A program made the position numbers and the translations under genes. Positions 36,593 to 50,489 of a stretch of DNA of 64,000 nucleotides are shown one piece after another. The stretch's first letter is position 1. Each line of letters begins with the position of its first letter. The notes below the pieces were generated by a model. That model was given only the letters and a program-made list of their open reading frames with translations, had not been told where the DNA came from and did no database searches. This DNA comes from Bacteroidota bacterium (lineage in GTDB: Bacteria > Bacteroidota > Bacteroidia > Bacteroidales > JAAAOM01), in NCBI GenBank assembly GCA_009908855.1, contig JAAAOM010000012.1, forward strand, positions 682-64,681, in the 5' to 3' direction.

Positions 36593-37671
36593 TTTCGTGC
36601 ATTATTCTTATCTTTTCAATCGTTTCACTTCTTTATCAAAATCGGAAGTGTAATTCTTATCTTGAATTTTTCTATACTTATCATACTCTTGTTCAGCTTT
36701 TAATTTAGCCTCTAAAGCACTAACTTTTCCTTTATCCTTCAGAATCGGGTAGTTTGATAATTCCAAGAATTGATGCAAAAAATTAATCCAATCCTGCATG
36801 TTAGTCGGTATCTGTCTTTCTGCTCTTGCCTCAGCTAAATCAAGGTAAGCTGAAACAATCCGATTAAGTTCTTTAATATGCTGTTCGTTTAAGTAGTTTT
36901 TAGCAATCGACACATCAGATTTTAATATTTTACCATCTGGCGAATGTTTCTAATTGGTCAATCCCATGTATATTTTTGTAGCATCAGCCGATGAATAAAT
37001 AATCTCCGCAGCAGTTTTACCAGTTATAGCCCAATGTAATTTGTTTTGAACAGTGGCAAAAAAGTCCTTAGTCAACGTATCAGTATTATTATAATCAATC
37101 GACAAAGCATAAATGTCCGTAATCTTTTGATAGAATCTTCTCTCACTGGCTCGAATCTCTCGAATCCGTTCAAGAAGCTCATCAAAATAATCTTTACCAA
37201 AATGCTTGCCTTGTTTTAACCGTTCATCATCTAATACAAATCCTTTTGTTATAAACTCGTTTAATACCTTGGTGGACCAAATTCGAAATTTTGTTGCTTT
37301 ATTTGAATTTACCCTGTATCCAACAGCAATTATTGTGTCTAAATTGTAAAATGTTGTCTTATATTTTTTCCCATCATCTGCAGTATGTTCCAAAATGGAA
37401 CTAACTGAACTTTCCTCCAATTCTCCTGATTCAAAGATATTTTTTAGATGTTTTGTTATCGCAGGTCTTTGAACTCCAAATAATTCAGCAATTTTCTTTT
37501 GGGTCATCCAAAAAGTCTCGTCCTGAAAGATGACCTCTATTTTTATAACTCCATCATCAGATTGGTAAAATATAATTTCGGATTCTTTTGTCATTTAAGT
37601 TTTAATCTCAAATATACACAATTTCACCTCGCTTCAAGATTGCACTGTCGCTTCTCTGCATGAATGCCAAC
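36471..37671 (-). mobile_element. Putative integron-like single gene cassette carrying rhuM
   Basis: Starts with GTTGGCATTCATGC (37671-37658) and ends in a site beginning GCACGAAATGCCAAC; the two ends are near-complementary. Confidence 0.6.
36608..37594 (-). pseudogene. rhuM: Virulence RhuM-family protein interrupted by an in-frame TAG at 36950-36952
   Basis: WMTQKKIAELF, YNLDTIIAVGYRVNS, IREIRASERRFYQK, MGLTN*KHSPDGKILKSDVSIAKNYL; homologs have Trp at the stop. Confidence 0.88.
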
Positions 37672-37716: not shown

Positions 37717-38256
37717 TCATTTACGCTTGTAAAACCTGTACTGATAACCCAGTATTATACCCGCAATGGCACCAATCAAATGTCCCTCCCATGAAATTGG
37801 CTCATCGGTGGGTAATACACCGTATATTAATCCGCCATAAAGCAAAATAATAATCAGTGCAATAATGAATGACCTGAATGAACCACTGAACAAGCCAATA
37901 GCAATAAGAAATGCCGCAATAGAGTAAATCAGCGCACTTGCGCCAATATGTATTACCGGACGCGCAAAAATCCAGATCAATAAACCTCCCAACAACCAGC
38001 TCAGAACAACAATTTGCACTGCAATCCGCCTGTAGAATATCCAGAGAACAGTTAGCAGAACAAACAATGTAATGGTATTGGAAATAATATGTTGCAGATT
38101 ACCATGCAGCAAAGGAGCAGTTACTATTCCAATGAGTCCGTAAACATTGCGCGGATAAATACCAAACCGTGCCAGCTGGAGGTGAAAAAACATATCCGCC
38201 AGGAACACAGCCCAGATCAACAATATTAAATTCAGCGGTTTTTGGATCAGTCGCAT
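37717..38256 (-). CDS. Rhomboid-family intramembrane serine protease
   Basis: APLLHG..QH..SN, HIGASA, SWEGHLIGAIAG. Confidence 0.9.
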   Translation of the reverse strand: MRLIQKPLNLILLIWAVFLADMFFHLQLARFGIYPRNVYGLIGIVTAPLLHGNLQHIISNTITLFVLLTVLWIFYRRIAVQIVVLSWLLGGLLIWIFARPVIHIGASALIYSIAAFLIAIGLFSGSFRSFIIALIIILLYGGLIYGVLPTDEPISWEGHLIGAIAGIILGYQYRFYKRK

Positions 38257-38352: not shown

Positions 38353-38721
38353 ATGATTGAAAAAACACAAATTAGCACACTGGCAAAAGAATATAAACTC
38401 TGGCGAAATAAATTAGATAATTACCTGACCGAATGTATTGCCTTAAAGGAATCAATACGGGAAATATATAACATTGATAATGATATAACCACCAAGCTCA
38501 TTCCATTTGAAAGCGCGGTGAACAATAAAATTGTACACATAAAGGACCTGATTGCCAAAATAAGGATACAGGAAGAAGAAGCCCACTTCATAATGGTAAA
38601 CAGACCTAAAAAAGTGGAGTACTACCGCCAGCAACAAGAAAAATTAAGAGAGGAGATGAAGAAATTACACAAGGAACATCTCGGTTTGCTGGATGATTTT
38701 TTTAATGAAGTTATTGTTTAG
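38353..38721 (+). CDS. Hypothetical helical/coiled-coil protein
   Basis: 122-aa ORF filling the gap; heptad-like charge pattern. Confidence 0.6.
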   Translation: MIEKTQISTLAKEYKLWRNKLDNYLTECIALKESIREIYNIDNDITTKLIPFESAVNNKIVHIKDLIAKIRIQEEEAHFIMVNRPKKVEYYRQQQEKLREEMKKLHKEHLGLLDDFFNEVIV

Positions 38722-39784
38722 CGCCCATTAGCAATCCTTCACTTACACCAAAAGTCTTTTCAAGGTTCTTTTTATTAACGCCATTTGAGATTACCAACAA
38801 ATAGTCGTTCATGGCTACCCTGGTTCCTTTAGCAGGGTTTTTCAGAAGTTGTCTGTTGCCTTTTTCATCGATCTTTACAAGCCCGAGCAACACACTGTCA
38901 TGCATCTTTTTAAGTTCCATAAAAACCTCCAAATAATCGTTGTTCACAAAGGGATTAGATTGTGTAACACGGTATTGTTGAATATCAAAATCCGTTTCGT
39001 TGACTGATGTAGCAATTAAATCCTCGGTAAATGTACCCACATCGGGTTCAAATATATAACTCGCCACCAGTCGGGAGGCAATTTCATTACGAGCCAACAC
39101 GTATTTCGCACCAATGGATTGAAAGGTTTCCTTCAGTTCAGCATTATCCAGTGAGACAACAAAATCGGCGGTGTTAAAGTGTTTTCGCATGTTTATGAGG
39201 AATACCAACGCCTCCGAATCATCCTGGCGATTGATAAATACTGAGCGTGCCTGTTTAATATTTACCTTTTGGTAGGCATCGTAATTGGTAAACTCTGTAT
39301 ATAATACAAAAACCTGTTGATTTTCATAAAGGTCTTTAATCACATCCAAATCGGCTTTTGAATTGGTAACAATGGCCACGTCATTTCCAGCGCTTACAAT
39401 CTGGTTCACCACCATCCGTCCAAAATTATTCCAGCCAATCACTACAAAATGGTTCCTGAAATCGGTTCCGTAAAAACCTTCCTTTTTCTTTTCCATATAA
39501 TTGCGAATTTCATTTGAAATATTTCCAATAAGATATCCCACCAGTCCTAAACTTGAAATCACCAGAAACAAGCCCAATATTTTACCCTGTGGGGTAACCG
39601 GATACTGATCACCATAGCCAACGGTTGATAAGGTTACAATTGAATACCATATAGCATCCCAAATTGTTTTTATACTGGAAGACTCATGCGGTGCTTCAAA
39701 GTAGACGATAATTCTTAATACAACGAGAAAAAGAATAATAAATCCCGAATAAATGGTGATCCTACGTACAAGTTTGCGCGGCAT
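38711..39784 (-). CDS. Two-TM potassium channel with RCK (TrkA-N) domain
   Basis: Selectivity filter TVGYGD; HFVVIGW Rossmann start. Confidence 0.92.
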   Translation of the reverse strand: MPRKLVRRITIYSGFIILFLVVLRIIVYFEAPHESSSIKTIWDAIWYSIVTLSTVGYGDQYPVTPQGKILGLFLVISSLGLVGYLIGNISNEIRNYMEKKKEGFYGTDFRNHFVVIGWNNFGRMVVNQIVSAGNDVAIVTNSKADLDVIKDLYENQQVFVLYTEFTNYDAYQKVNIKQARSVFINRQDDSEALVFLINMRKHFNTADFVVSLDNAELKETFQSIGAKYVLARNEIASRLVASYIFEPDVGTFTEDLIATSVNETDFDIQQYRVTQSNPFVNNDYLEVFMELKKMHDSVLLGLVKIDEKGNRQLLKNPAKGTRVAMNDYLLVISNGVNKKNLEKTFGVSEGLLMGAKQ

Positions 39785-39873: not shown

Positions 39874-40281
39874 TTATGTACGTTTTGGCTTATAAACCAG
39901 CCCCAGCACCAATCCCGAAATTAAAAACTGCAACAAACCATAAATCATCCATTGAATGGTTAGTTCAAAGGGTATGGGATATACGACATGTTGATTTAAA
40001 ACGCCTGCCGAACTTATCATCAAACCGGATAACAGGCCAAAAATAAAACCGCTTATCAGGTTATAACTTTTTGACCATTGTGTATAGATTAGAACAAAGA
40101 AAGAAACAAACAACAGATCAGCCAGATACATAAGCCATAAGTATTGCATCATATCAGATCGCCAAAGGGTACTGATATTTTGATACGCATCCATTAACAG
40201 CACACTATGAATAAGGTAACTAAGAATTTCATAAGTAAGAAACACCAAAAGGACGGTGATTAAATAGCGTTTAACATTCAT
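39874..40281 (-). CDS. Hypothetical 4-TM membrane protein
   Basis: Four hydrophobic segments in 135 aa. Confidence 0.7.
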   Translation of the reverse strand: MNVKRYLITVLLVFLTYEILSYLIHSVLLMDAYQNISTLWRSDMMQYLWLMYLADLLFVSFFVLIYTQWSKSYNLISGFIFGLLSGLMISSAGVLNQHVVYPIPFELTIQWMIYGLLQFLISGLVLGLVYKPKRT

Positions 40282-40341: not shown

Positions 40342-41877
40342 TTAATACAAATCCCACCTTCCATGCCGGTAATACTGATACAGTACCGGATTGGCAATGG
40401 TATTGACTTCCACACTATCGTCATTAAAAATTGGTTTTCCAAAAGAAGTGATTAATTCCAGGGCCTCCTCATTTAACCATTTAGTAGGAATGGAGTCAAG
40501 GTTGGCTTTGCGCACATGCTTTTTAAGCTCAGTCTGATTCCAAACCTGGCTGCCCAGTATCCATCCCCACTGGCCCAGGGTTAACACCTGATTATGCATG
40601 GGTAATGAATGAAAACCGGATGCCTGCATGGTTTGCTCAATGCAGTTAAAAGCCCTGGGCGCATAGTAAGGGCTCCCGGCCTGGGTTATAAAAACCCCAT
40701 ATGGTCTTAAATGCTGTTGCACCAGTTCATAAAACTGGAGTGTATACAGTTTATTAATCTCCATTTTGTTCGGGTCCGGGAGGTCAACGATAATAATATC
40801 ATAAAACTGATTGGTTTGTTCCAGAAACTGAAAACCATCCTGATTAAATATCTCTACTTTGGGATGATTCATGGAACCTTCATTAAACGCAAGAAATATT
40901 TCATTTTCCCGGGCCAGCTTGGTGATAGCAGGATCAAGGTCCACAACGGCAATATTTTCAAGTGTCGGGTATTTAAGTAATTCCCGGGCAACACAACCGT
41001 CTCCTCCGCCAATAACCAGTGCATCTGTAGGATGTTGTAATAAACTCATCGCCGGATGTACCAGGGGTTCGTGATACATAAATTCATCAATGGTACTTAA
41101 TTGATGATTGCCATCCAAAAACAACCAGTAATCTTCTTTCCATTGGGTAAGTACAATTTTTTGGTAACGTGATTGTTTTTGCAGAATAATCTTATCCTTA
41201 TATTTTAACTGGTCACTATGCAACTCAATCGGTTTGGCAAAGATTAAGCCGGCTGCAATAAGAACGGCAGAAAATATAAATCCGCTTACGATCCATTTAC
41301 GAACAGGGGGATGAATAAATTCCCTGAGCATAATAATCAGCCATATCGCTACCAGAAAATTGAGTATTCCCAGCACAAAAGGTGTATAGGTTATTCCCAG
41401 CAATGGTAATCCGAAAAAAGCAAAAAATATACCGCCCAGCAAACTACCCAGATAATCCTTCTCGAGTACCGAGGCAATATTGTAACGCAGGCTTTCATAT
41501 TTTTCGTTAAACCGGGTTACCAGTGGGATTTCCATACCTATAAGCAAACCGATAAGAATGCTTAAGAAATAGATGAAAAATCCGGTGAATATTGAATAAG
41601 CCGCTATTACGTATACAAACAATGCTGAGAGCGAACTGAGAATCGATAGTGCCAGCTCAACAAACACCAGGTATTCAAGTACGTATTTCTCGACTAACTG
41701 ACTGATGCGACTACCCACTCCCATTGCAAAAAGCATAATCGAAAGAATTAAACTCCATTGCAATACAGGATCACCCAGGAAATAAGTGGCCAGGGTAGAT
41801 AAAATAAATTCTGCCACTATCCCTGCTAATCCGGTGGCAAAAAGCGCTACTTTTAAAACATACGACTTATTGCGCAT
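40342..41877 (-). CDS. speE: Membrane-anchored spermidine synthase (polyamine aminopropyltransferase)
   Basis: About 7 N-terminal TM helices; SRYQKI, YHEPLVHP, LVIGGGDG, DIIIVDLPDP. Confidence 0.9.
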   Translation of the reverse strand: MRNKSYVLKVALFATGLAGIVAEFILSTLATYFLGDPVLQWSLILSIMLFAMGVGSRISQLVEKYVLEYLVFVELALSILSSLSALFVYVIAAYSIFTGFFIYFLSILIGLLIGMEIPLVTRFNEKYESLRYNIASVLEKDYLGSLLGGIFFAFFGLPLLGITYTPFVLGILNFLVAIWLIIMLREFIHPPVRKWIVSGFIFSAVLIAAGLIFAKPIELHSDQLKYKDKIILQKQSRYQKIVLTQWKEDYWLFLDGNHQLSTIDEFMYHEPLVHPAMSLLQHPTDALVIGGGDGCVARELLKYPTLENIAVVDLDPAITKLARENEIFLAFNEGSMNHPKVEIFNQDGFQFLEQTNQFYDIIIVDLPDPNKMEINKLYTLQFYELVQQHLRPYGVFITQAGSPYYAPRAFNCIEQTMQASGFHSLPMHNQVLTLGQWGWILGSQVWNQTELKKHVRKANLDSIPTKWLNEEALELITSFGKPIFNDDSVEVNTIANPVLYQYYRHGRWDLY

Positions 41878-41880
41878 ACT

Positions 41881-42756
41881 TTAGAGTACCCAGGTAATTA
41901 GCATGGCACCACCCACATAAGCAAATGCTTCAATAAGTGCTACCCCTTTGTTAGGTTTTTCCTGATTAATTAACTCATCGGTAAGATTTCTTTTTGGCAA
42001 TAAAATTTTATCCGTTAACACACGTGCAACGGGGAGGAATATAAATCCAATAACAGTATCCACCAGTAATGCAATTGAAAAGTCCAGCCAACCGTTTAAT
42101 AAATCGTGAATGGCAAACTGAATGATAATACCAAGCGCTACCAATGCACCGGCAAATCCAATACCCACCGCCACATTGTCCTTCTCAATATGCTCGTGCA
42201 CACTGTACGGAAGAAAAACGTTGTAAATGAGCGCACCAATGATCAGTACAACCTGTGCAATGGCCCAACAACCTACTGAATCTAATAAAGATGCACCTTC
42301 CACATTAAAGGCGCCTAAAAGGACAAGCCCGGTAGCGATGGAGGTGGCTGCAACCACCACACCGGTTCCGGCATTTTTATCCTCCAGAATTTCTTTGCTA
42401 ACTTTGAATTTTCTTAAAATAAGGGCATCATTAATATAAACGGATATATTCAGCAAAACAATGCCAACCAACCCGTACATACCAATCAGTTGAAGGTCCA
42501 ACAGTAATCCGAGGCTCTCACCCGACAATGCGGCCATAATAACCAGCACAATGCCAATATAATATCCCACCTGTGAGATAGCAAAGGCCATGTTGTCTTT
42601 TTCAACCAGTTCAGAATCCGTTTTGTATGCCGGATGAAAGATGTTATGCGCAAATTTCCCGATCAGAAGCAGTATAAAGGCAGAAACAAAGTACGCCAGG
42701 GTACTTAAAATGTATTCTGGTGTAAAGTAACTAAGGCTAATAGCGTTTGTAAGCAT
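41881..42756 (-). CDS. DUF350 (YjfL-like) membrane protein, tandem-duplicated domain
   Basis: Repeated ELVEKDNMAFA / EILEDKNAGTG / EHIEKDNVAVG / ELINQEKPNKGVA motifs between TM helices. Confidence 0.85.
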   Translation of the reverse strand: MLTNAISLSYFTPEYILSTLAYFVSAFILLLIGKFAHNIFHPAYKTDSELVEKDNMAFAISQVGYYIGIVLVIMAALSGESLGLLLDLQLIGMYGLVGIVLLNISVYINDALILRKFKVSKEILEDKNAGTGVVVAATSIATGLVLLGAFNVEGASLLDSVGCWAIAQVVLIIGALIYNVFLPYSVHEHIEKDNVAVGIGFAGALVALGIIIQFAIHDLLNGWLDFSIALLVDTVIGFIFLPVARVLTDKILLPKRNLTDELINQEKPNKGVALIEAFAYVGGAMLITWVL

Positions 42757-42779
42757 GGTTTATTTTATTTTTTGAGTTT

Positions 42780-43502
42780 TTATTTTCCAAAACCTCCACC
42801 ACGGGAGCGATAACTGGAGGATGATGACCGTCCGGTTCGATTGGATGAGCTGGATTGCCATCCGGTACGTTGCTGTCGGCGCTCAAAGAAGTTCGATGAA
42901 CGGGTTGACCTGGTATTTCTTGTGTATTTGCTGTTTGTACCGTAATCGTATCGCCCGTAGCGATCGCGTGTTCCGTAAAATGGCCGACGACCACGGTAAT
43001 TATTTGCATAATTATTATACATGCCGTAGCCAATGGGTCCACCCATTGCCATATTGAATATTGAACTGAACATGGCGTATTTTCCATAAAATTCCCAGAA
43101 AGACCCTCCGTCGCGCTGTACCCATTGGCCGTATTTTTCATTACCCACATAGTTTGAAAATCCTGGTGGAGAAGGATTTTTGTTTAATTTACCATCCTCG
43201 GTTTTTACAGCGATTTCCATACCCATATTATTCTGGTGATGACGAAAAAACTCAGGTGTTACATTTTCCCAATCTGTTACACGTTCCTGTGGTACGCCGT
43301 TTTCTTCGGTAATTATTTTATATTTATGAAGATAGTCTTTCGCTAAAAAGCCACGTATATCCAGATCATGCAGGATAATGGTAAAGGTTTGTTTGTCATC
43401 CATTTGCCGGATGAGTTTATCGACCGGTGATTTCTGAAATCCTGAACCACAGGATAGCACCAGCATTGCGATAAATGAAAATAATAATATTTTTTTTATC
43501 AT
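42780..43502 (-). CDS. Lipoprotein with Tyr/Gly/Arg/Ser-rich tail ending RSRGGGFGK
   Basis: Lipobox LVLSC; low-complexity tail reminiscent of YjfM/YgiB (DUF1190) tails. Confidence 0.8.
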   Translation of the reverse strand: MIKKILLFSFIAMLVLSCGSGFQKSPVDKLIRQMDDKQTFTIILHDLDIRGFLAKDYLHKYKIITEENGVPQERVTDWENVTPEFFRHHQNNMGMEIAVKTEDGKLNKNPSPPGFSNYVGNEKYGQWVQRDGGSFWEFYGKYAMFSSIFNMAMGGPIGYGMYNNYANNYRGRRPFYGTRDRYGRYDYGTNSKYTRNTRSTRSSNFFERRQQRTGWQSSSSNRTGRSSSSSYRSRGGGFGK

Positions 43503-43517
43503 AATGAATTGTTTGAT

Positions 43518-44063
43518 TTATGCAGGAACTATATTGGAGAATTCATATTCCTCGACAAAAATGCCTACCGAAGCCTCAATTTCCGATTCGCCCCAACGAG
43601 TCAGGCCAATAAGCTCTTTTTTTTCCTCATCCACGAAATCCCAGCTCACAAACTCCGACCAATAATCGTTGTCCATATCGCGGAAATATCCCTGGCTTTC
43701 TTCATCCATATAAAAGATTTTGCCCTTATAATTGATAGTTGAAGAAGGCTTGTCATGTGCAATGATATCACTTTTCAGGGATTTGTCAATACTCAAAATA
43801 TTGGCATCTTCAGTTAAACTTAGGATTAGCTCGCCATCATCCTCCACATGCAGGTATTTTTTTTCTTTGCCATTGGTAATTAAATATTCTTTCGAGAAAA
43901 AATTGTTGCCCCAATCGTATTGATAAGCTTCTTTCACTTCCCACGACTGCATGAAATAGTCAATAATGTATCCTTTTCGTAAATCCCTAAGGGAGAGATT
44001 GGTTACGTCAATTTGATCTTCCTCTTTTTTGCCCTTTATTTTGTTTACAATTTTCTTGAACAT
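43518..44063 (-). CDS. DUF4178 domain protein
   Basis: W.V...YQYDWG...EY......YLHVEDD...WGE.E.EASVG pattern; operon context. Confidence 0.75.
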   Translation of the reverse strand: MFKKIVNKIKGKKEEDQIDVTNLSLRDLRKGYIIDYFMQSWEVKEAYQYDWGNNFFSKEYLITNGKEKKYLHVEDDGELILSLTEDANILSIDKSLKSDIIAHDKPSSTINYKGKIFYMDEESQGYFRDMDNDYWSEFVSWDFVDEEKKELIGLTRWGESEIEASVGIFVEEYEFSNIVPA

Positions 44064-44067
44064 ACAC

Positions 44068-44451
44068 TTATTCCATTTCCTCGTTTGTGCCAGCCATGGC
44101 GGTTTTTATATATCCCCTGGGGACAATGGAAAACGAGTGTTTTCCGGCCCCAAGCGTGTCAATCAAATAATCATAAGCTTTTTCGAAATCCATTTTGGCA
44201 CTGCAGGTAAACAGATCCACGGCTGCATAATTGTACTCGGGCCAGGTGTGGATGGCAAAGTGACTTTCTTGTATAACCACTACTCCAGATTGACCAGTGG
44301 GTGAATACGAATGGAAATGCGTGCTTACCACCGTGGCTCCTGCTAATTTGGCCGCTTCTGTCATAATTTGCTCAAGTTTGCCTGAATTGTTCAGCACATC
44401 TGAATCACATTCATGAAATTCGGCCAACATGTGGTTTCCTAAATAATCCAT
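44068..44451 (-). CDS. speD: S-adenosylmethionine decarboxylase proenzyme (prokaryotic type 1B)
   Basis: G.H...E..C; self-cleavage site QESHFAIHTWPEY; AAVDLFTC. Confidence 0.93.
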   Translation of the reverse strand: MDYLGNHMLAEFHECDSDVLNNSGKLEQIMTEAAKLAGATVVSTHFHSYSPTGQSGVVVIQESHFAIHTWPEYNYAAVDLFTCSAKMDFEKAYDYLIDTLGAGKHSFSIVPRGYIKTAMAGTNEEME

Positions 44452-44673
44452 TTACCATCTCCAGTTAAAGAAGTGTCTAATTCGTGCGGCAATAAACAAT
44501 ACCAGCGCAACCACAATTAAAAATATGGCTACTTTAAATAAGAAGGCAAATAACAAAATAGCTATGCCAACAGCAAGCAGAATAGCCAAAAAATTTTTTA
44601 GCTGTCTGAACAAAGGCCGATCCGCTTGATACGAATAAGAGCCTTTGCGTTTATTGTAATGCATTTGCATCAT
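44452..44673 (-). CDS. Small membrane protein (about 2 TM)
   Basis: 73 aa, long hydrophobic stretch; its stop abuts the speD ATG. Confidence 0.6.
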   Translation of the reverse strand: MMQMHYNKRKGSYSYQADRPLFRQLKNFLAILLAVGIAILLFAFLFKVAIFLIVVALVLFIAARIRHFFNWRW

Positions 44674-44740
44674 GATCGTGAAATTAAATTATTAATGAAT
44701 GTAGGAGATTTCAATACTTTTTCCTTAAGAGGTGTGTGTA

Positions 44741-44830
44741 TAGTAGCAGGTGGCAGTGGCAGTTAGCTGTGGCAGTTAGCTGTGGATTTTATATATTGAT
44801 ACTGCTTACTGCCACTTCCACCTACCACTG
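44741..44830. repeat. Intergenic long stem-loop with an internal 13-nt tandem duplication
   Basis: GTAGCAGGTGGCAGTGGCAGTTAGC (44743-44767) pairs with GCTTACTGCCACTTCCACCTACCAC (44804-44828); GTGGCAGTTAGCT occurs twice in tandem. Confidence 0.8.
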
Positions 44831-44848
44831 CTATTGCCAATTTCCCAA

Positions 44849-45550
44849 CTACATCCCCATTTTCTTCTTCAGCTCCGCCAAAGAATCTGATGCGGCTGCT
44901 TTATTCGGATCGCCCAACGCTTTGTCAATCTCATCATCCACGCTTTTGCTCTCGTTGGCAATATCTCCATAGGCCTCTGCCATAGCTTCTTCTTCGGCTA
45001 CTTTGTCCTTCATTTTCTCAAGCATGGAAACTGTACCGGATGAGTCGACCTGGGCCATTTGTTTATTTAAATTCTTGGTGGCCTGACTCACTTTTTGCCG
45101 CGCTTTTAACGTTCGCAATTCGTTTTCCCATTTGCTAATATTGGAGCGCAATGTTTTGATGTTTGATTCCAGTTTTGAAATCGAATCCTGGTATTTATTC
45201 ACTTCTTCCTCCAGTCTTTTTACATTGGCGTTGCATTCTTCTTTCTTGGTTAATGCTTCAGATGCCAGGCGGTCTGCTTCATTTTGATCCATGTCGCCTG
45301 ATTTGGCTTTTTGCAACAACATCATAGCCTTTTTTTCATAATCAGCCGCAGCCTCCTTTTCCTGGTTCATTTCGTTACGACTGCGTATGGCCATAGCCTT
45401 CACCTCAGCCAATGATTTCAACGCTTTTTCCAAATCACCTTTCAGGTCACGAATACCTTGCTCGGTAAGCTTTATCGGATTTTCCAGTTGATCCATGGCG
45501 GAATGCAGCTCCGACTGTCCCATTTTAAATAATCGCTTAAACACACTCAT
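44849..45550 (-). CDS. PspA/IM30 (ESCRT-III-like) family protein
   Basis: MSVFKRL amphipathic start, LENPIKLTEQGIRDL, long coiled coil, LAELKKKMG end. Confidence 0.92.
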   Translation of the reverse strand: MSVFKRLFKMGQSELHSAMDQLENPIKLTEQGIRDLKGDLEKALKSLAEVKAMAIRSRNEMNQEKEAAADYEKKAMMLLQKAKSGDMDQNEADRLASEALTKKEECNANVKRLEEEVNKYQDSISKLESNIKTLRSNISKWENELRTLKARQKVSQATKNLNKQMAQVDSSGTVSMLEKMKDKVAEEEAMAEAYGDIANESKSVDDEIDKALGDPNKAAASDSLAELKKKMGM

Positions 45551-45572
45551 TGTATTATCTTTTTAAATCATT

Positions 45573-45968
45573 TTAACTCTTAGAAAACTTAATTAAATCA
45601 TCGGAATATTCACTGAGCAGAAGTGCCAGTGAGTTAATAGAGCCTTCGATCTCATTCAGGTCCAGATTTTCCAATTGCAACGTATCCCGGAAAATCACTT
45701 TCGTGCCCGTTTCATCCAGCACAAATGCCCCGTGTATAATATCGCGGTTTTTTTGCAACAGACTTTTATAGATCTCAGACGACTCTTTTTTAATTTCCAT
45801 GATATATTGTTCCATGATTAAGATAGGTGGTGCACAACCCAATACCAGGTTATGAATACCTTCAGAATCATCTGATATTACCAGTACACTGTCTTCTGTA
45901 TCTTCATGAACAACATTGTATCCTAATTCAAGGATGAACTCTTTTACTTTTTCGAAATTTTCCTCCAT
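45573..45968 (-). CDS. YbjN/CesT-like chaperone domain protein
   Basis: LLQKNRDIIHGAFVLD...VIFRDTLQLENLD.NE; upstream of the pspA-like gene. Confidence 0.75.
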   Translation of the reverse strand: MEENFEKVKEFILELGYNVVHEDTEDSVLVISDDSEGIHNLVLGCAPPILIMEQYIMEIKKESSEIYKSLLQKNRDIIHGAFVLDETGTKVIFRDTLQLENLDLNEIEGSINSLALLLSEYSDDLIKFSKS

Positions 45969-46091
45969 CGTTTGCAAGGGGTTTAAATTAAACGTTTAAC
46001 ATATTTTTTCCTGGTTTAACAGGTTCTCATCAACTTGCTCACACGGTGAACTCTATTCCTGAAAAGAATGCAATGTTCACATGGTGAGCAT

Positions 46092-46240: not shown

Positions 46241-46948
46241 ATGGTACAGAAAAACATTAAGAAAATAAGGTCTTTTAAAGGTCTTAGCCAAAGTGCTTTT
46301 GCAGAACTCTTTGGTTTAACCAGGGCAAGTGTGGGTGCATATGAGGAAGGAAGAGCGAAACCAAAAACTGAAATCGCGGTTCAAATAGCTAATTATTTTA
46401 GCATCCCATTGGAACTGCTTTTAACTAAAGAATTAACTATTAATGACATTGCCAATTATGATATGCTACCACAATCGGCTTCAATAGAAGAAACAGCAGT
46501 AAATTCGTCAACTATCCGATTTGTAGAAGCTGAAATGCTTCCGGAATATTTAAAGCAATTGGATCAATCAGCTTTCACGCAAAGTATACCGGTTTTTTCT
46601 CTTCCATTTATCATGTCCGGAACAAATATATGTTTTGAACTTGATGATGCTTATTTTCAAAACAAGCTGAATCAGTTCAAACCAGGTGATAAACTTTTCT
46701 GCAAAGCCGTAAAGAATTTCAAAAAGCTCAATTCAACCCAATATTATTTGGTGGTCCTGGATACTATGTTCTACCTGTCGAATTTGGCTTATGACAGGGA
46801 TCGTAAAATGGTTTTTAATCCTCATAATACTGTTGAAAAGATCTTTGAAAACGAGATTAGGGAATGCTGGCAAGTTACTGGTGTTTTACAAATGCTAATA
46901 TCTCAGGCGAATGGAAAGGATAGGCTGGACAAATATCTAAAACTATAA
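46241..46948 (+). CDS. XRE-family HTH transcriptional regulator (possible degenerate S24-like C-terminus)
   Basis: NIKKIRSFKGLSQSAFAELFGLTRASVGAYEEGRAKP; ATG 46241 preferred as start. Confidence 0.88.
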   Translation: MVQKNIKKIRSFKGLSQSAFAELFGLTRASVGAYEEGRAKPKTEIAVQIANYFSIPLELLLTKELTINDIANYDMLPQSASIEETAVNSSTIRFVEAEMLPEYLKQLDQSAFTQSIPVFSLPFIMSGTNICFELDDAYFQNKLNQFKPGDKLFCKAVKNFKKLNSTQYYLVVLDTMFYLSNLAYDRDRKMVFNPHNTVEKIFENEIRECWQVTGVLQMLISQANGKDRLDKYLKL

Positions 46949-46980: not shown

Positions 46981-47757
46981 CTATGTTTTAATGCTTTTAA
47001 CAAATCGCTGTATTTTCTCCTTCAATGACTTCTCTCCCTCGTCCAATGCATGAATAAAAGCACTCCCAATAATCGCCCCATGCGCATATTTACAGGCCCT
47101 GCTAAAAGTCTCATGATTGGAGATACCGAATCCGATCAAAGTCGGATTGGACAATTTCATCGCATTGATACGCTCGAAATATCGTATTTGATTCTCCTGA
47201 ATATCTTTCCGCGCACCCGTGGTAGAAGCGGATGAAACCAAATAAATAAAACCGGAAGTTTCTTGGTCGATCAACCGAACTCGCTCTTCACTGGTTAGGG
47301 GTGTTACCAAAAAAATATTGTGCAATCCGTACTGCTGAAAAATGTCTTTATATTCTTCCAGGTACAGATCAACCGGAAGATCGGGAAGAATTAAGCCGTC
47401 AATACCCACATCCTTGCAATGCTGGCAAAATTTTTCGAGACCGAATTGTAAAACCGGATTCAAATAACCCATGGCAATTAGCGGTATATCAATTTCATTG
47501 CGAATATCTTTCAGTTGCTCGAACAGCTTTTTAAGGGTCATGCCATTATTCAACGCTTGCAGGCTGCTTTTCTGGATCACAGGCCCATCTGCTATGGGAT
47601 CGGAAAATGGCATGCCAATTTCAATGATATCTACACCATTCTTCACCAATTCCAAAAGAACTTCACGAGTGGAATCAATTGCTGGGTAACCAGCTGTAAA
47701 ATAAACGGATAAAATATCCTGCTCTTTTTCAGCAAAGAGTTTATTAATTCTATTCAT
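46981..47757 (-). CDS. trpA: Tryptophan synthase alpha chain
   Basis: YFTAGYP, EIGMPFSDPIADGPVIQ, GFGIS, GAIIGSA. Confidence 0.97.
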   Translation of the reverse strand: MNRINKLFAEKEQDILSVYFTAGYPAIDSTREVLLELVKNGVDIIEIGMPFSDPIADGPVIQKSSLQALNNGMTLKKLFEQLKDIRNEIDIPLIAMGYLNPVLQFGLEKFCQHCKDVGIDGLILPDLPVDLYLEEYKDIFQQYGLHNIFLVTPLTSEERVRLIDQETSGFIYLVSSASTTGARKDIQENQIRYFERINAMKLSNPTLIGFGISNHETFSRACKYAHGAIIGSAFIHALDEGEKSLKEKIQRFVKSIKT

Positions 47758-48955
47758 TATCAACGTAGTTTTCTAAATTGTCGATATAAGCCTGCAAGTC
47801 TTTGTCACCACGACCGGATAGATTTACTACCACTACATCATCCTGTTTGAATGAAATTTTATCCAGGCCAGCCAATGCATGTGCTGTTTCCAGCGCCGGA
47901 ATAATACCCTCAAACTTGGTAAGCTGATAAGCGGCTTTCAGGGCTTCATGGTCCGTGGCATAAATATATTTACCTCGTTTCGATTGATGCAGATGGGCAT
48001 GCAATGGTCCGATACCCGGATAATCCAGTCCGGCCGAAATAGAATAAGGTTCAATCACCTGTCCGTCATCAGTTTGCATAAGCATGGAGCGACTCGCATG
48101 CAATACACCTGGTTTTCCGGCAACCAGTGTTGCAGCGGTTTCAGGTGTGTTCACGCCTTTTCCTGCTGCTTCTACAGCAATAAGCTGAACATCCGGATTT
48201 TCCAGGTAATGGTAAAATGCTCCGGCAGCGTTACTTCCACCACCAACACAGGCAATAATGGCGGTGGGATTTTCATGACCCGTGGCTTCTTTCAGTTGAG
48301 TTTTCATCTCAGCACTTATAACGGATTGAAATTGTGTGACCATATCGGGATAAGGATGCGGGCCAACCACTGAACCAATAATGTAATGTGTATCCTCGGG
48401 ATTATTGATCCAATCGCGCATGGCTTCGTTAGTGGCATCCTTCAGTGTTTTATTACCGCTGTGCACGGGTACTACCTCAGCACCCAACATACGCATACGG
48501 GCTACATTGGGTGATTGTCGTTGTACATCGAGGTCACCCATGTATACCACACATTGAATATTCATAAGCGCACAAACAGTTGCCGTTGCAACCCCATGTT
48601 GACCGGCTCCTGTTTCGGCTATAATGCGTTTTTTACCGATACGTTGTGCAAGCAGAATCTGACCGATGGTATTGTTTATTTTGTGCGCACCCGTATGGCA
48701 AAGGTCTTCACGCTTCAGGTATAGTTTAACATGGTAATGTTCAGACAAACGCGTGGCAAAATAAAGCGGTGTTGGTCTTCCTACATAGTCTTTCAACAAT
48801 GATTTAAATTCCCGCTGAAACCCTTCATCATTAATAATATCCAGGTATTTAGTTTCCAGTTCTTTGATGTTCGGATACATCATTTCAGGGATAAATGCCC
48901 CGCCAAACTCGCCGTAGTATCCTTTTTTATTCACATTATAATTTGTTGCTGCCAT
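47750..48955 (-). CDS. trpB: Tryptophan synthase beta chain
   Basis: KREDLCHTGAHKINN, AETGAGQHG, NLSGRGDKD. Confidence 0.98.
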   Translation of the reverse strand: MAATNYNVNKKGYYGEFGGAFIPEMMYPNIKELETKYLDIINDEGFQREFKSLLKDYVGRPTPLYFATRLSEHYHVKLYLKREDLCHTGAHKINNTIGQILLAQRIGKKRIIAETGAGQHGVATATVCALMNIQCVVYMGDLDVQRQSPNVARMRMLGAEVVPVHSGNKTLKDATNEAMRDWINNPEDTHYIIGSVVGPHPYPDMVTQFQSVISAEMKTQLKEATGHENPTAIIACVGGGSNAAGAFYHYLENPDVQLIAVEAAGKGVNTPETAATLVAGKPGVLHASRSMLMQTDDGQVIEPYSISAGLDYPGIGPLHAHLHQSKRGKYIYATDHEALKAAYQLTKFEGIIPALETAHALAGLDKISFKQDDVVVVNLSGRGDKDLQAYIDNLENYVDNE

Positions 48956-49058
48956 GTTGTTTTATGTTTTGTTTCCCTACAAAGACCGCCATTCTGTGAA
49001 TGTGGTCTGATATCCCATCTTCGCTTTACGCAAAACTTTTTGTCTTTCTCGAATTCAA

Positions 49059-49691
49059 TTATTGCCTTATCTCCTGCACAAAGTACTTCACCGCATCCAC
49101 ATTTTTATAGCCGGGTTCGAGCTCAAACCGGCTGTTGATATCCAACACCTGCACAAAAGGCATATCCATTTCTTTGATACCGGCTGCATCATCCGGACCT
49201 ATACCCCCACTTAAGAACACTGGTTTTTCCAATGCATAGCTTTCCAGTATTTTCCAGTCGAATTTTTCGCCACTCCCGCCAAAACGAGGAGTACGTGTAT
49301 CGAATAAAAAATAATCAACCAGCGGCTGGTAGCGCATCATAACATTCACAGGCAACACATTTTGAATGGAAAAGGTTTTAATAATCTCAATCCCTTGTTC
49401 CTTCAATTGTTTACAGTAATCCTCACTTTCACCACCATGCAACTGAACCATTTGTAAACCATATTTATTTACCTTATCAAGTACAGCTTCCAATTCGGTA
49501 TTAACAAATACACCAACTTTTTTAATGTTCCCGGGAACAATACTAAAAATAGTTGTATCCGGGTTTTCACCAACATAGCGTTTGGATTTGGGGTAGAAAA
49601 TATATCCTATATAATCAGGATTTAGGGATATGAGTGCCTGAATATTCTCATATTCCTTCATTCCGCATACTTTTATTTTATAATCTGACAT
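49059..49691 (-). CDS. trpF: Phosphoribosylanthranilate isomerase
   Basis: KVCGM, VQLHG, GGSGEKFDW, FLSGGI. Confidence 0.95.
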   Translation of the reverse strand: MSDYKIKVCGMKEYENIQALISLNPDYIGYIFYPKSKRYVGENPDTTIFSIVPGNIKKVGVFVNTELEAVLDKVNKYGLQMVQLHGGESEDYCKQLKEQGIEIIKTFSIQNVLPVNVMMRYQPLVDYFLFDTRTPRFGGSGEKFDWKILESYALEKPVFLSGGIGPDDAAGIKEMDMPFVQVLDINSRFELEPGYKNVDAVKYFVQEIRQ

Positions 49692-49697
49692 ATTAAT

Positions 49698-50489
49698 TTA
49701 TTTTACTTCCTGTAACAACTCCATGAATTCTCTGAATGCCATTGCCGGGTTCTCGGTTCTCATAAAGTTTTCACCAATTAAAAATCCCTGAAATCCCTCT
49801 TGTTTTAATTCTATTATTTGCTTCGGATGACCGATACCACTCTCTGAAATCTTCACAAATTCACCAGGAATTTTTGCTGATAAATGTTTTGATGTATCCA
49901 GTGATACTTCAAACGTTTTAAGATTGCGATTGTTGACACCCACCACATCCAGATAGCTATTGACCATTTCAAGTTCCTGTTCGTTATGAATTTCCATCAA
50001 AACCTCTAAATGGAGGCTTTTTGCCAGCTTGGCAAAATGCATGGCTTCCGGCTTGGTAAGACAAGCGGCTATTAATAAAATGGCATCGGCTCCGATGGAC
50101 TTGGCCTCATAGATCTGATAATCATCAACGATAAAATCTTTTCTAAGTATAGGCACTTCATTTGCGCTGCGTGCACTAGTCAGGTCATTGTTTGAACCGC
50201 CGAAGAATTTCGTATCGGTAAGTACCGACAAGGCTGATGCACCCGCCTGAACGTATCCCTTTGTAACTGCTTCAACATCCGCCTGATCATTAATAATCCC
50301 TTTTGACGGGGATTGACGTTTAAACTCGGTAATAATCCCGGATTTATCATGCCTGATAATAAATTCCTTTAGTGAATGGGTAGGCCTGTTAAAATATTCA
50401 CTCTTTTCAAGCTCCTGCAGGGTTACTGCTTTTTTTGAAGTTTCAACCTCTTTCTTTTTGTAAGCAACAATTTCCTCTAGTATGGTCAT
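49698..50489 (-). CDS. trpC: Indole-3-glycerol-phosphate synthase
   Basis: EFKRQSPSKG, LRKDF, GVNNRNL, SESGI. Confidence 0.96.
   Translation of the reverse strand: MTILEEIVAYKKKEVETSKKAVTLQELEKSEYFNRPTHSLKEFIIRHDKSGIITEFKRQSPSKGIINDQADVEAVTKGYVQAGASALSVLTDTKFFGGSNNDLTSARSANEVPILRKDFIVDDYQIYEAKSIGADAILLIAACLTKPEAMHFAKLAKSLHLEVLMEIHNEQELEMVNSYLDVVGVNNRNLKTFEVSLDTSKHLSAKIPGEFVKISESGIGHPKQIIELKQEGFQGFLIGENFMRTENPAMAFREFMELLQEVK

Follow-up and report, generated by a model that had tools for sequence, protein, structure and literature searches.

Organization of the operon

The operon described here, which encodes a membrane-bound aminopropyltransferase and a lipoprotein ending in lysine, occupies positions 45968-40342 on the minus strand of a 64,000-nt stretch of DNA (hereafter the window; positions 682 to 64,681 of contig JAAAOM010000012.1, GenBank assembly GCA_009908855.1) from a Bacteroidota bacterium of the Bacteroidales lineage JAAAOM01. 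It comprises eight co-oriented open reading frames (ORFs), all judged to be real from ORF and family scans. In gene order these encode a CesT/Tir-like protein, a PspA/IM30 protein, a small membrane protein, the S-adenosylmethionine (SAM) decarboxylase SpeD, a DUF4178 protein, the lipoprotein, a DUF350 protein and the aminopropyltransferase (Table 1), with intergenic gaps of 22, 175, 0, 4, 15, 23 and 3 nt. An earlier note on this sequence had named the eight genes and their spacing and drawn a parallel with Escherichia coli yjfIJKLMC; our coordinates, gaps and family scans agree with the former, and the gene content agrees with the latter. In the E. coli systems yjfIJKLMC and ygiBC (PDB 7UK6, 7UK8), a chaperone-like gene, PspA, DUF350 and a tailed partner lie near a polyamine enzyme, as they do here. 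The E. coli systems, however, pair an ATP-grasp ligase with a GG-ended DUF1190 protein, whereas the window has SpeD, SpeE and a GK-ended partner.

This layout is not new, and the class has been published. Ravi et al. 2024 (PMC11237479) describe a second CesT/Tir-PspA group that contains a CesT/Tir-PspA dyad, a fusion of seven transmembrane (TM) helices to a spermine synthase, an 8TM DUF350 protein, the lipoprotein Ctha_1186 and DUF4178, exemplified by the context of Shewanella oneidensis SO_3765; alongside it stands a ligase-type group whose operons also hold a K+ channel. The authors of that paper raise "aminopropylation of other substrates", with reference to Li et al. 2019, and propose polyamine monitoring; its main text has no match for "lysine" or "periplasm". 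The window shares the dyad, the 7TM-synthase fusion, the 8TM DUF350 protein and DUF4178 with this group, and its lipoprotein fits Ctha_1186 in lipobox, low-complexity tail and position, a name that we apply by architecture and context. It differs in having speD inside the operon and the K+ channel after it, in its gene order, and in that no RHH gene was seen. We found no report of lysine or protein aminopropylation in the literature searched, which did not cover most subscription journals. Clusters of an AdoMetDC, an MFS-SpdSyn fusion and DUF350 were reportedly described in 2019 by Li, Kurihara, Kim, Liang and Michael, who are said to have seen no spermidine synthase activity for the fusions and to have proposed an acceptor other than putrescine. 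The window resembles these clusters in its small SpeD, its membrane-fused spermidine-synthase-like protein and its DUF350.

Table 1. Features of the operon and its flanks (window positions)
Feature	Position	Strand	Basis and remarks
Divergent XRE-family regulator	46241..46948	+	HTH_19/HTH_3; ORF called from 46124, 46241 likelier start
Two palindromes GYTCAC-N3-GTGARC, candidate operator	46037-46051 and 46075-46089	.	between operon and XRE gene
CesT/Tir-like chaperone-fold protein, 131 aa	45573..45968	-	CesT_Tir_1 PF22550 1e-57; pspA partner in homologous loci
PspA/IM30 (ESCRT-III-like), 233 aa	44849..45550	-	PspA_IM30 PF04012 1.4e-42
Long RNA hairpin 3' of pspA, ends approximate	44742..44829	-	z -4.3; 0/200 shuffles fold equally well
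73-aa protein, two hydrophobic segments	44452..44673	-	family scans; no family
SpeD, small pyruvoyl-type AdoMet decarboxylase	44068..44451	-	AdoMet_dc 8e-39; TIGR03330 131 bits vs cut-off 75.65
DUF4178 protein	43518..44063	-	PF13785 2.6e-18
Lipoprotein, no family	42780..43502	-	Cys18, Arg/Ser/Gly tail, ends Gly239-Lys240; candidate acceptor
DUF350 (YjfL family), 8 TM, two repeats	41881..42756	-	PF03994 2.6e-54
Membrane aminopropyltransferase	40342..41877	-	Spermine_synth; 7 N-terminal hydrophobic segments; NF002956
4-TM ORF	39874..40281	-	gap 60; co-oriented, downstream of the region described in the earlier note
K+ channel (Ion_trans_2 + TrkA_N)	38711..39784	-	gap 89; family scan

Modelled structure and predicted topology of the membrane aminopropyltransferase

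The last enzyme of the operon scores 551.2 bits against NF002956 (PRK03612, membrane polyamine aminopropyltransferase; cut-off 472) and does not reach the cut-off of TIGR00417, the model for soluble SpeE (154 versus 249.55 bits). Its structure model, with a predicted local distance difference test score of 96, consists of half a major facilitator superfamily (MFS) transporter (residues 1-190), a seventh helix (190-224) and an aminopropyltransferase domain. Residues 1-190 match half an MFS transporter with a Z score of about 18, at which many families are tied. The enzyme shares its fold with Thermus thermophilus SpeE (1UIR; Z 35.4, root-mean-square deviation 2.4 over 280 residues), and the residues for catalysis and for binding decarboxylated SAM (dcSAM) are common to it and the soluble enzymes (1UIR; E. 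coli 3O4F). The dcSAM motif GGG(D/E)G, as given in PMC11107197, is present as GGGDGC, and the catalytic Asp pair is D365 and D368. Among 100 homologues, D315, D365 and D368 are conserved in 100, Q259 and Y268 in 96 and D293 in 91; in the membrane domain, the acidic residues E23, E116 and D141 are kept in 86, 93 and 95.

Two features set the window enzyme apart from the soluble SpeEs. The C-terminal motif P-x-Y-x-x-G of three aligned soluble enzymes is shortened, to VPSF-G-x-W in the membrane family and to VLTL-G-Q-W here. In addition, the soluble enzymes lack the half-MFS domain, whereas the window enzyme is fused to one and its catalytic domain is predicted to lie outside the cytoplasm. This prediction, which the earlier note had proposed making, follows from the charge of the loops: over 100 sequences the mean number of Lys and Arg residues per loop is 1.8, 0.2, 2.5, 0.3, 3.2, 0.7 and 3.4, and because this charge alternates from an inside N-terminus, helix 7 would carry the catalytic domain across the cytoplasmic membrane. 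No hydrophobic segment follows the signal of the lipoprotein, and the tail of this protein is disordered in the structure model; tail and active site would therefore share a compartment. In some relatives (L008, L016) the DUF4178 protein and the lipoprotein are fused via a membrane helix, an architecture that fits this arrangement.

Variants of the enzyme occur elsewhere. In four loci (L012:9057-10598, L013, L015:12115-13656 and L026), membrane SpeE has a second, convergent paralogue, which is followed by a protein of ~503 residues with a twin-arginine-like start and one of ~360 residues. A 1025-residue form (L083:2068-5145) belongs to a separate subfamily, and its genome also encodes the 525-residue type.

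A conserved terminal lysine in the partner proteins

The C-terminal sequence of the window lipoprotein is SSSSYRSRGGGFGK. Among the best 120 of its 473 homologues, the window's own protein included, 118 end in Gly-Lys, and the tail that precedes these two residues varies; across 79 aligned lipoproteins, Cys18, Gly239 and Lys240 are invariant. As a background, 20 of the 2596 called ORFs of the same genome end in GK. The relatives come mostly from Bacteroidota and include long forms ending in GFGK (L008:5784-7121, L016:2848-4161, L226:2472-3812). A fold search with the lipoprotein was uninformative (best Z 4.8). Homology to the DUF1190 partner of E. coli was rejected, as a profile comparison matched the lipobox and nothing beyond it. 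DUF1190 had no match among the operon proteins. A suggested link to UPF0323 (Atlas lead, 0.84) was not confirmed either: the profiles matched in the tail only, with a probability of 30.

We then surveyed membrane-SpeE loci from genome and metagenome collections, keeping 104 with at least 1.5 kb upstream each after 11 had been dropped as duplicates, as the window itself or as members of another subfamily. In all-ORF scans, a partner was scored when a hydrophobic ORF had a small-residue tail ending in [G/H]K. This rule picks out a partner in 81 of the 104 loci, and any other last residue in at most 8. With the enzymes clustered, such a partner is present in 71/89 clusters at 80% identity, 32/39 at 60% and 10/13 at 50%. 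The K-tailed partners range from micro-proteins of 43 residues to DUF4178 fusions of more than 500 and fall into 30 single-linkage groups, a number that overstates the count of families because short proteins split easily; many are unrelated to the window lipoprotein. With the rule fixed, loci fetched later passed in 2 of 2 plasmid cases, in 6 of 7 with SpeE and DUF350, and in 4 of the remaining 11 (one pass doubtful), and none of five soluble-SpeE loci fetched earlier passed. The locus set has no Actinomycetota and hence no DUF4247 partners, and its plasmid matches are limited to Pseudomonadota genera and Gemmatirosa. The earlier note had raised a non-standard acceptor, such as a lipid or the basic lipoprotein tail; the conservation of Gly-Lys and the prevalence of the [G/H]K ending support this idea, with the lipoprotein tail as the best candidate.

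In two further loci (L228:189-1769, L229:7099-9560), the membrane SpeE belongs to a divergent subtype and is accompanied by a protein ending in GGGK or FGGK and by unclassified neighbours; no DUF350 was detected there.

Variable partners and distribution

Membrane SpeE was found in 31 of 301 Pseudomonadota genomes, in 8 of 151 sampled from the window's phylum and in 40 of 121 from Saprospiraceae, a family label taken from the names of homologues. Of 68 loci that extend for 5 kb or more in both directions, 15 include PspA and another 14 a Band-7 protein. PspA is an optional partner, and the PspA-centred view of the operon in the earlier note is weaker than one centred on the tail. On an Alteromonas plasmid (L242:7539-8645), the module includes a toxic-anion-resistance protein, and the annotation of the stretch lists no PspA.

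Homologous loci of the lipoprotein type, 29 in number and each of at least 11 kb, were compared gene by gene. A DUF350 homologue was detected by tblastn in 26 of these and a K+ channel homologue in 12. The K+ channel is likely to belong to the module, and because of these 12 loci the unit probably reaches position 38711. Neither the 4-TM ORF between aminopropyltransferase and channel, which may be a local insertion, nor the 73-residue protein has a homologue in the 29 loci; in L015 a 56-residue membrane ORF occupies the position of the latter.

Relation to ligase-type loci

Ligases of the GspS/YgiC type also lie next to genes for tailed proteins, and of the tailed neighbours in 34 such loci, 22 end in Gly, 11 in Ser and one in Lys. 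E. coli YgiB and YjfM end in SMGG and HWGG, and YgiC and YjfC are reported in a review to be peptide-spermidine ligases. The earlier note suggested that SpeD and a membrane SpeE replace the ATP-grasp ligase. This holds in the sample of 301 Pseudomonadota genomes, where membrane SpeE (31 genomes) and the ligase family (52) are never found together; the overlap expected is 5.4 (hypergeometric P 0.002, with the caveat that related genomes are not independent). It fails in the Saprospiraceae, where 40 genomes have the membrane SpeE, 31 the ligase and 26 both, which rules out mutual exclusivity as a universal feature.

The Saprospiraceae loci combine elements of both types. In the hybrid clusters (L081, at G143:C65, and L200-L217), speE is divergent from a gene for a GG-tailed UPF0323-type protein, accompanied by a GspS-like ligase and often by speD. 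The UPF0323-type partner occurs in 26 genomes, 23 of which also have membrane SpeE, adjacent in 17; homologues of this partner end in GG in 43 of the 43 listed. DUF350 was found in none of these 26 genomes, and a K tail in none of the 14 loci in which membrane SpeE adjoins the ligase. Since membrane SpeE occurs with a GG-tailed partner in these 23 genomes, lysine is not required by the membrane-SpeE family as a whole.

In a midpoint-rooted tree, 16 hybrid-type enzymes form one clade (support 0.96) within the K-type enzymes. Their dcSAM motif reads GGGEG in 16 of 16, as opposed to GGGDG in 51 of 51 K-type enzymes. The Asp of this motif has been linked to spermine synthases (aminobutyl ends) and the Glu to most thermospermine synthases, and the motif is said not to classify spermidine synthases (PMC11107197). 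As the split between the two groups represents a single evolutionary event, it is only suggestive. The hybrid fits an enzyme that requires an amine-tipped tail, whether the amine is encoded or ligated. One hybrid locus also holds a 457-residue ORF that begins with SpeD and is convergent on the ligase (L206:8803-10176); it is probably a fusion of SpeD and a soluble SpeE, the SpeE half having been judged by eye.

Polyamine genes in the host genome

One SpeE-like gene and one SpeD were found in the host genome, both in the operon. The genome is 90% complete, which limits all genome-wide negatives given here. The earlier note had seen no putrescine-forming enzyme in the operon, and three family models find no arginine or ornithine decarboxylase (ADC, ODC) in the genome as a whole; OKR_DC_1, pyruvoyl ADC and deoxyhypusine-synthase-like genes and a GSP_synth ligase (PF03738) were not found there either. 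The sole fold-type III decarboxylase scores as LysA, and an arginase-family protein is nearest to HutG, below the cut-off. An agmatine deiminase is, however, encoded. The SpeD sequence contains ESH, which we take to be the Glu-Ser self-cleavage site. Homologues of small pyruvoyl AdoMetDC with ADC or ODC activity have been described; from the function of its family, the substrate of the window SpeD is probably SAM.

Candidate regulatory features and flanking genes

The PspA protein falls below the equivalog cut-offs for PspA (TIGR02977, 53.8 versus 242.95) and LiaH (NF045984, 40.8 versus 380); by these scores it is a member of the wider PspA/IM30 family only, neither PspA proper nor LiaH. The hairpin that follows its gene is composed of short GTGGCA-type repeats, is present in one copy in the genome, and possibly stabilizes or attenuates the mRNA. 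Upstream of the operon, the palindrome pattern has two matches genome-wide, both in this region, from which the pattern itself was derived; it was not seen in 13 homologous loci. Homologues of the XRE regulator occur in the related loci L003, L121 and L122. A scan for promoters and terminators gave no excess over shuffled sequences (31 versus 27.1 and 7 versus 6.8).

The flanking genes are of several kinds. Convergent on the XRE gene lie ordinary tryptophan biosynthesis genes (46981-50489; trpA, trpB, trpF and trpC by sequence). On the other side, two genes past the K+ channel and on the same strand, is a Rhomboid-family membrane protease (37717-38256), and two adjoining ORFs at 36608-37594 resemble pieces of one gene, presumably a RhuM/virulence-protein-like one.

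Discussion

We propose that the operon encodes an envelope protein-modification system in which the C-terminal lysine of the lipoprotein is aminopropylated in the periplasm, and with this lysine as the presumed acceptor we put the chance that the proposal is correct at about even. SpeD would make dcSAM in the cytoplasm, as expected for its family; outward passage of the dcSAM would be through the half-MFS domain, which might act as a dimer or together with DUF350. The catalytic domain would then transfer at least one aminopropyl group (+57.06 Da each) to the ε-amine of Lys240, resulting in a polyamine-tipped, Arg/Ser-rich tail. In operons of the GspS/YgiC type, ligation of a polyamine to a tail ending in Gly or Ser would give a comparable product. 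The module has PspA, CesT and the K+ channel as optional linked partners, which would connect it with membrane stress. In favour of the proposal are the Gly-Lys ending of the lipoprotein family, the [G/H]K partners of membrane SpeE, the Gly and Ser endings at ligase loci, the lack of a K tail where enzyme and ligase adjoin, the intact catalytic residues, the charge bias of the loops and the negative search of the genome for arginine and ornithine decarboxylases.

More tentatively, the proposal can be widened to the family. In this extended form, the half-MFS domain would export dcSAM and the periplasmic domain would extend the C-terminal residue of a membrane-anchored carrier by a polyamine chain, as a widespread and unrecognized modification. 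The starter would be either an encoded C-terminal lysine or a polyamine that a YgiC-type ligase has joined to a C-terminal Gly-Gly. In the Saprospiraceae hybrid, where Glu takes the place of Asp in the dcSAM motif, the two enzymes would act in succession on the same tail.

Several observations weigh against these proposals. Two of the 120 lipoprotein homologues end in RRR, and a terminal lysine also serves as the peptidoglycan anchor in Braun's lipoprotein (Lpp). The [G/H]K rule was fixed after inspection of the data, and 23 of the 104 loci fail it in its strict form. On inspection at least eight of these do have a K-ended partner (L058, L061, L123, L131, L133, L138, L147, L179), and others are orphans or lie at contig ends; conversely, chance ORFs probably account for at least two of the passes (L190, and L186 as picked). 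In L146 the micro-partner, ~490-354 nt upstream of speE, ends in GGRLYH and lacks the lysine of the usual HK ending, possibly through loss of its codon. For the micro-partners, the sidedness count of 10 versus 4 of 23 favours neither side clearly. It is the modelled fold that suggests transport by the half-MFS domain. The 23 Saprospiraceae genomes that pair membrane SpeE with a GG-tailed partner do so without DUF350; in the hybrid loci it is equally possible that a free polyamine product feeds the ligase, and the ligase route would require a cytoplasmic enzyme to meet an exported GG tail. Finally, since agmatine deiminase is present, putrescine could be formed from imported agmatine.

A possible, if rather unlikely, alternative is that the enzyme aminopropylates another envelope amine, such as a phosphoethanolamine-bearing lipid, lipopolysaccharide or a peptidoglycan amine, with the lysine serving another purpose, such as covalent anchoring to peptidoglycan by an L,D-transpeptidase or docking on the enzyme. 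The predicted periplasmic position of the catalytic domain would suit this, some enzyme genes are orphans with no tail nearby, and lipid and ethanolamine/choline transporters are among the nearest MFS folds, at the Z score of about 18 where many MFS families are tied. The lysine, however, follows membrane SpeE and not DUF350: the tails in ligase loci end in Gly or Ser, and L228 and L229 have a K tail with no DUF350 detected. The lysine is also absent where a ligase adjoins the enzyme.

We consider it unlikely that the enzyme instead makes a free polyamine, from cadaverine, agmatine or spermidine, at the membrane or beyond it, for coating of the envelope, gating of the linked K+ channel or supply to a ligase. 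The canonical active-site residues, the channel in 12 of 29 loci, the adjacency to a polyamine-requiring ligase in 17 of 23 Saprospiraceae genomes and the polyamine monitoring proposed by Ravi et al. (PMC11237479) all speak for it, yet it leaves the invariant lysine on unrelated partners without explanation, and the hybrid locus L206 holds a probable SpeD-soluble SpeE fusion of its own beside the ligase. An ordinary speD-speE pair for bulk spermidine that merely lies beside a pspA gene is very improbable: although no other SpeD or SpeE turned up in the genome and agmatine deiminase is present, the enzyme scores well under the soluble SpeE cut-off, its catalytic domain is predicted outside, its gene is tightly linked to those for DUF350, DUF4178 and tailed proteins, and the genome yielded no arginine or ornithine decarboxylase.

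Membrane "spermidine synthases" are currently annotated as if they were makers of polyamines. If periplasmic aminopropylation of the partner's terminal lysine is correct, they would instead be enzymes that aminopropylate a lysine of a bacterial envelope protein, together with export of a SAM derivative, and this would also indicate which substrates E. coli YgiC and YjfC act on in nature. The single conserved lysine offers a directly testable candidate for the acceptor of the enzyme.

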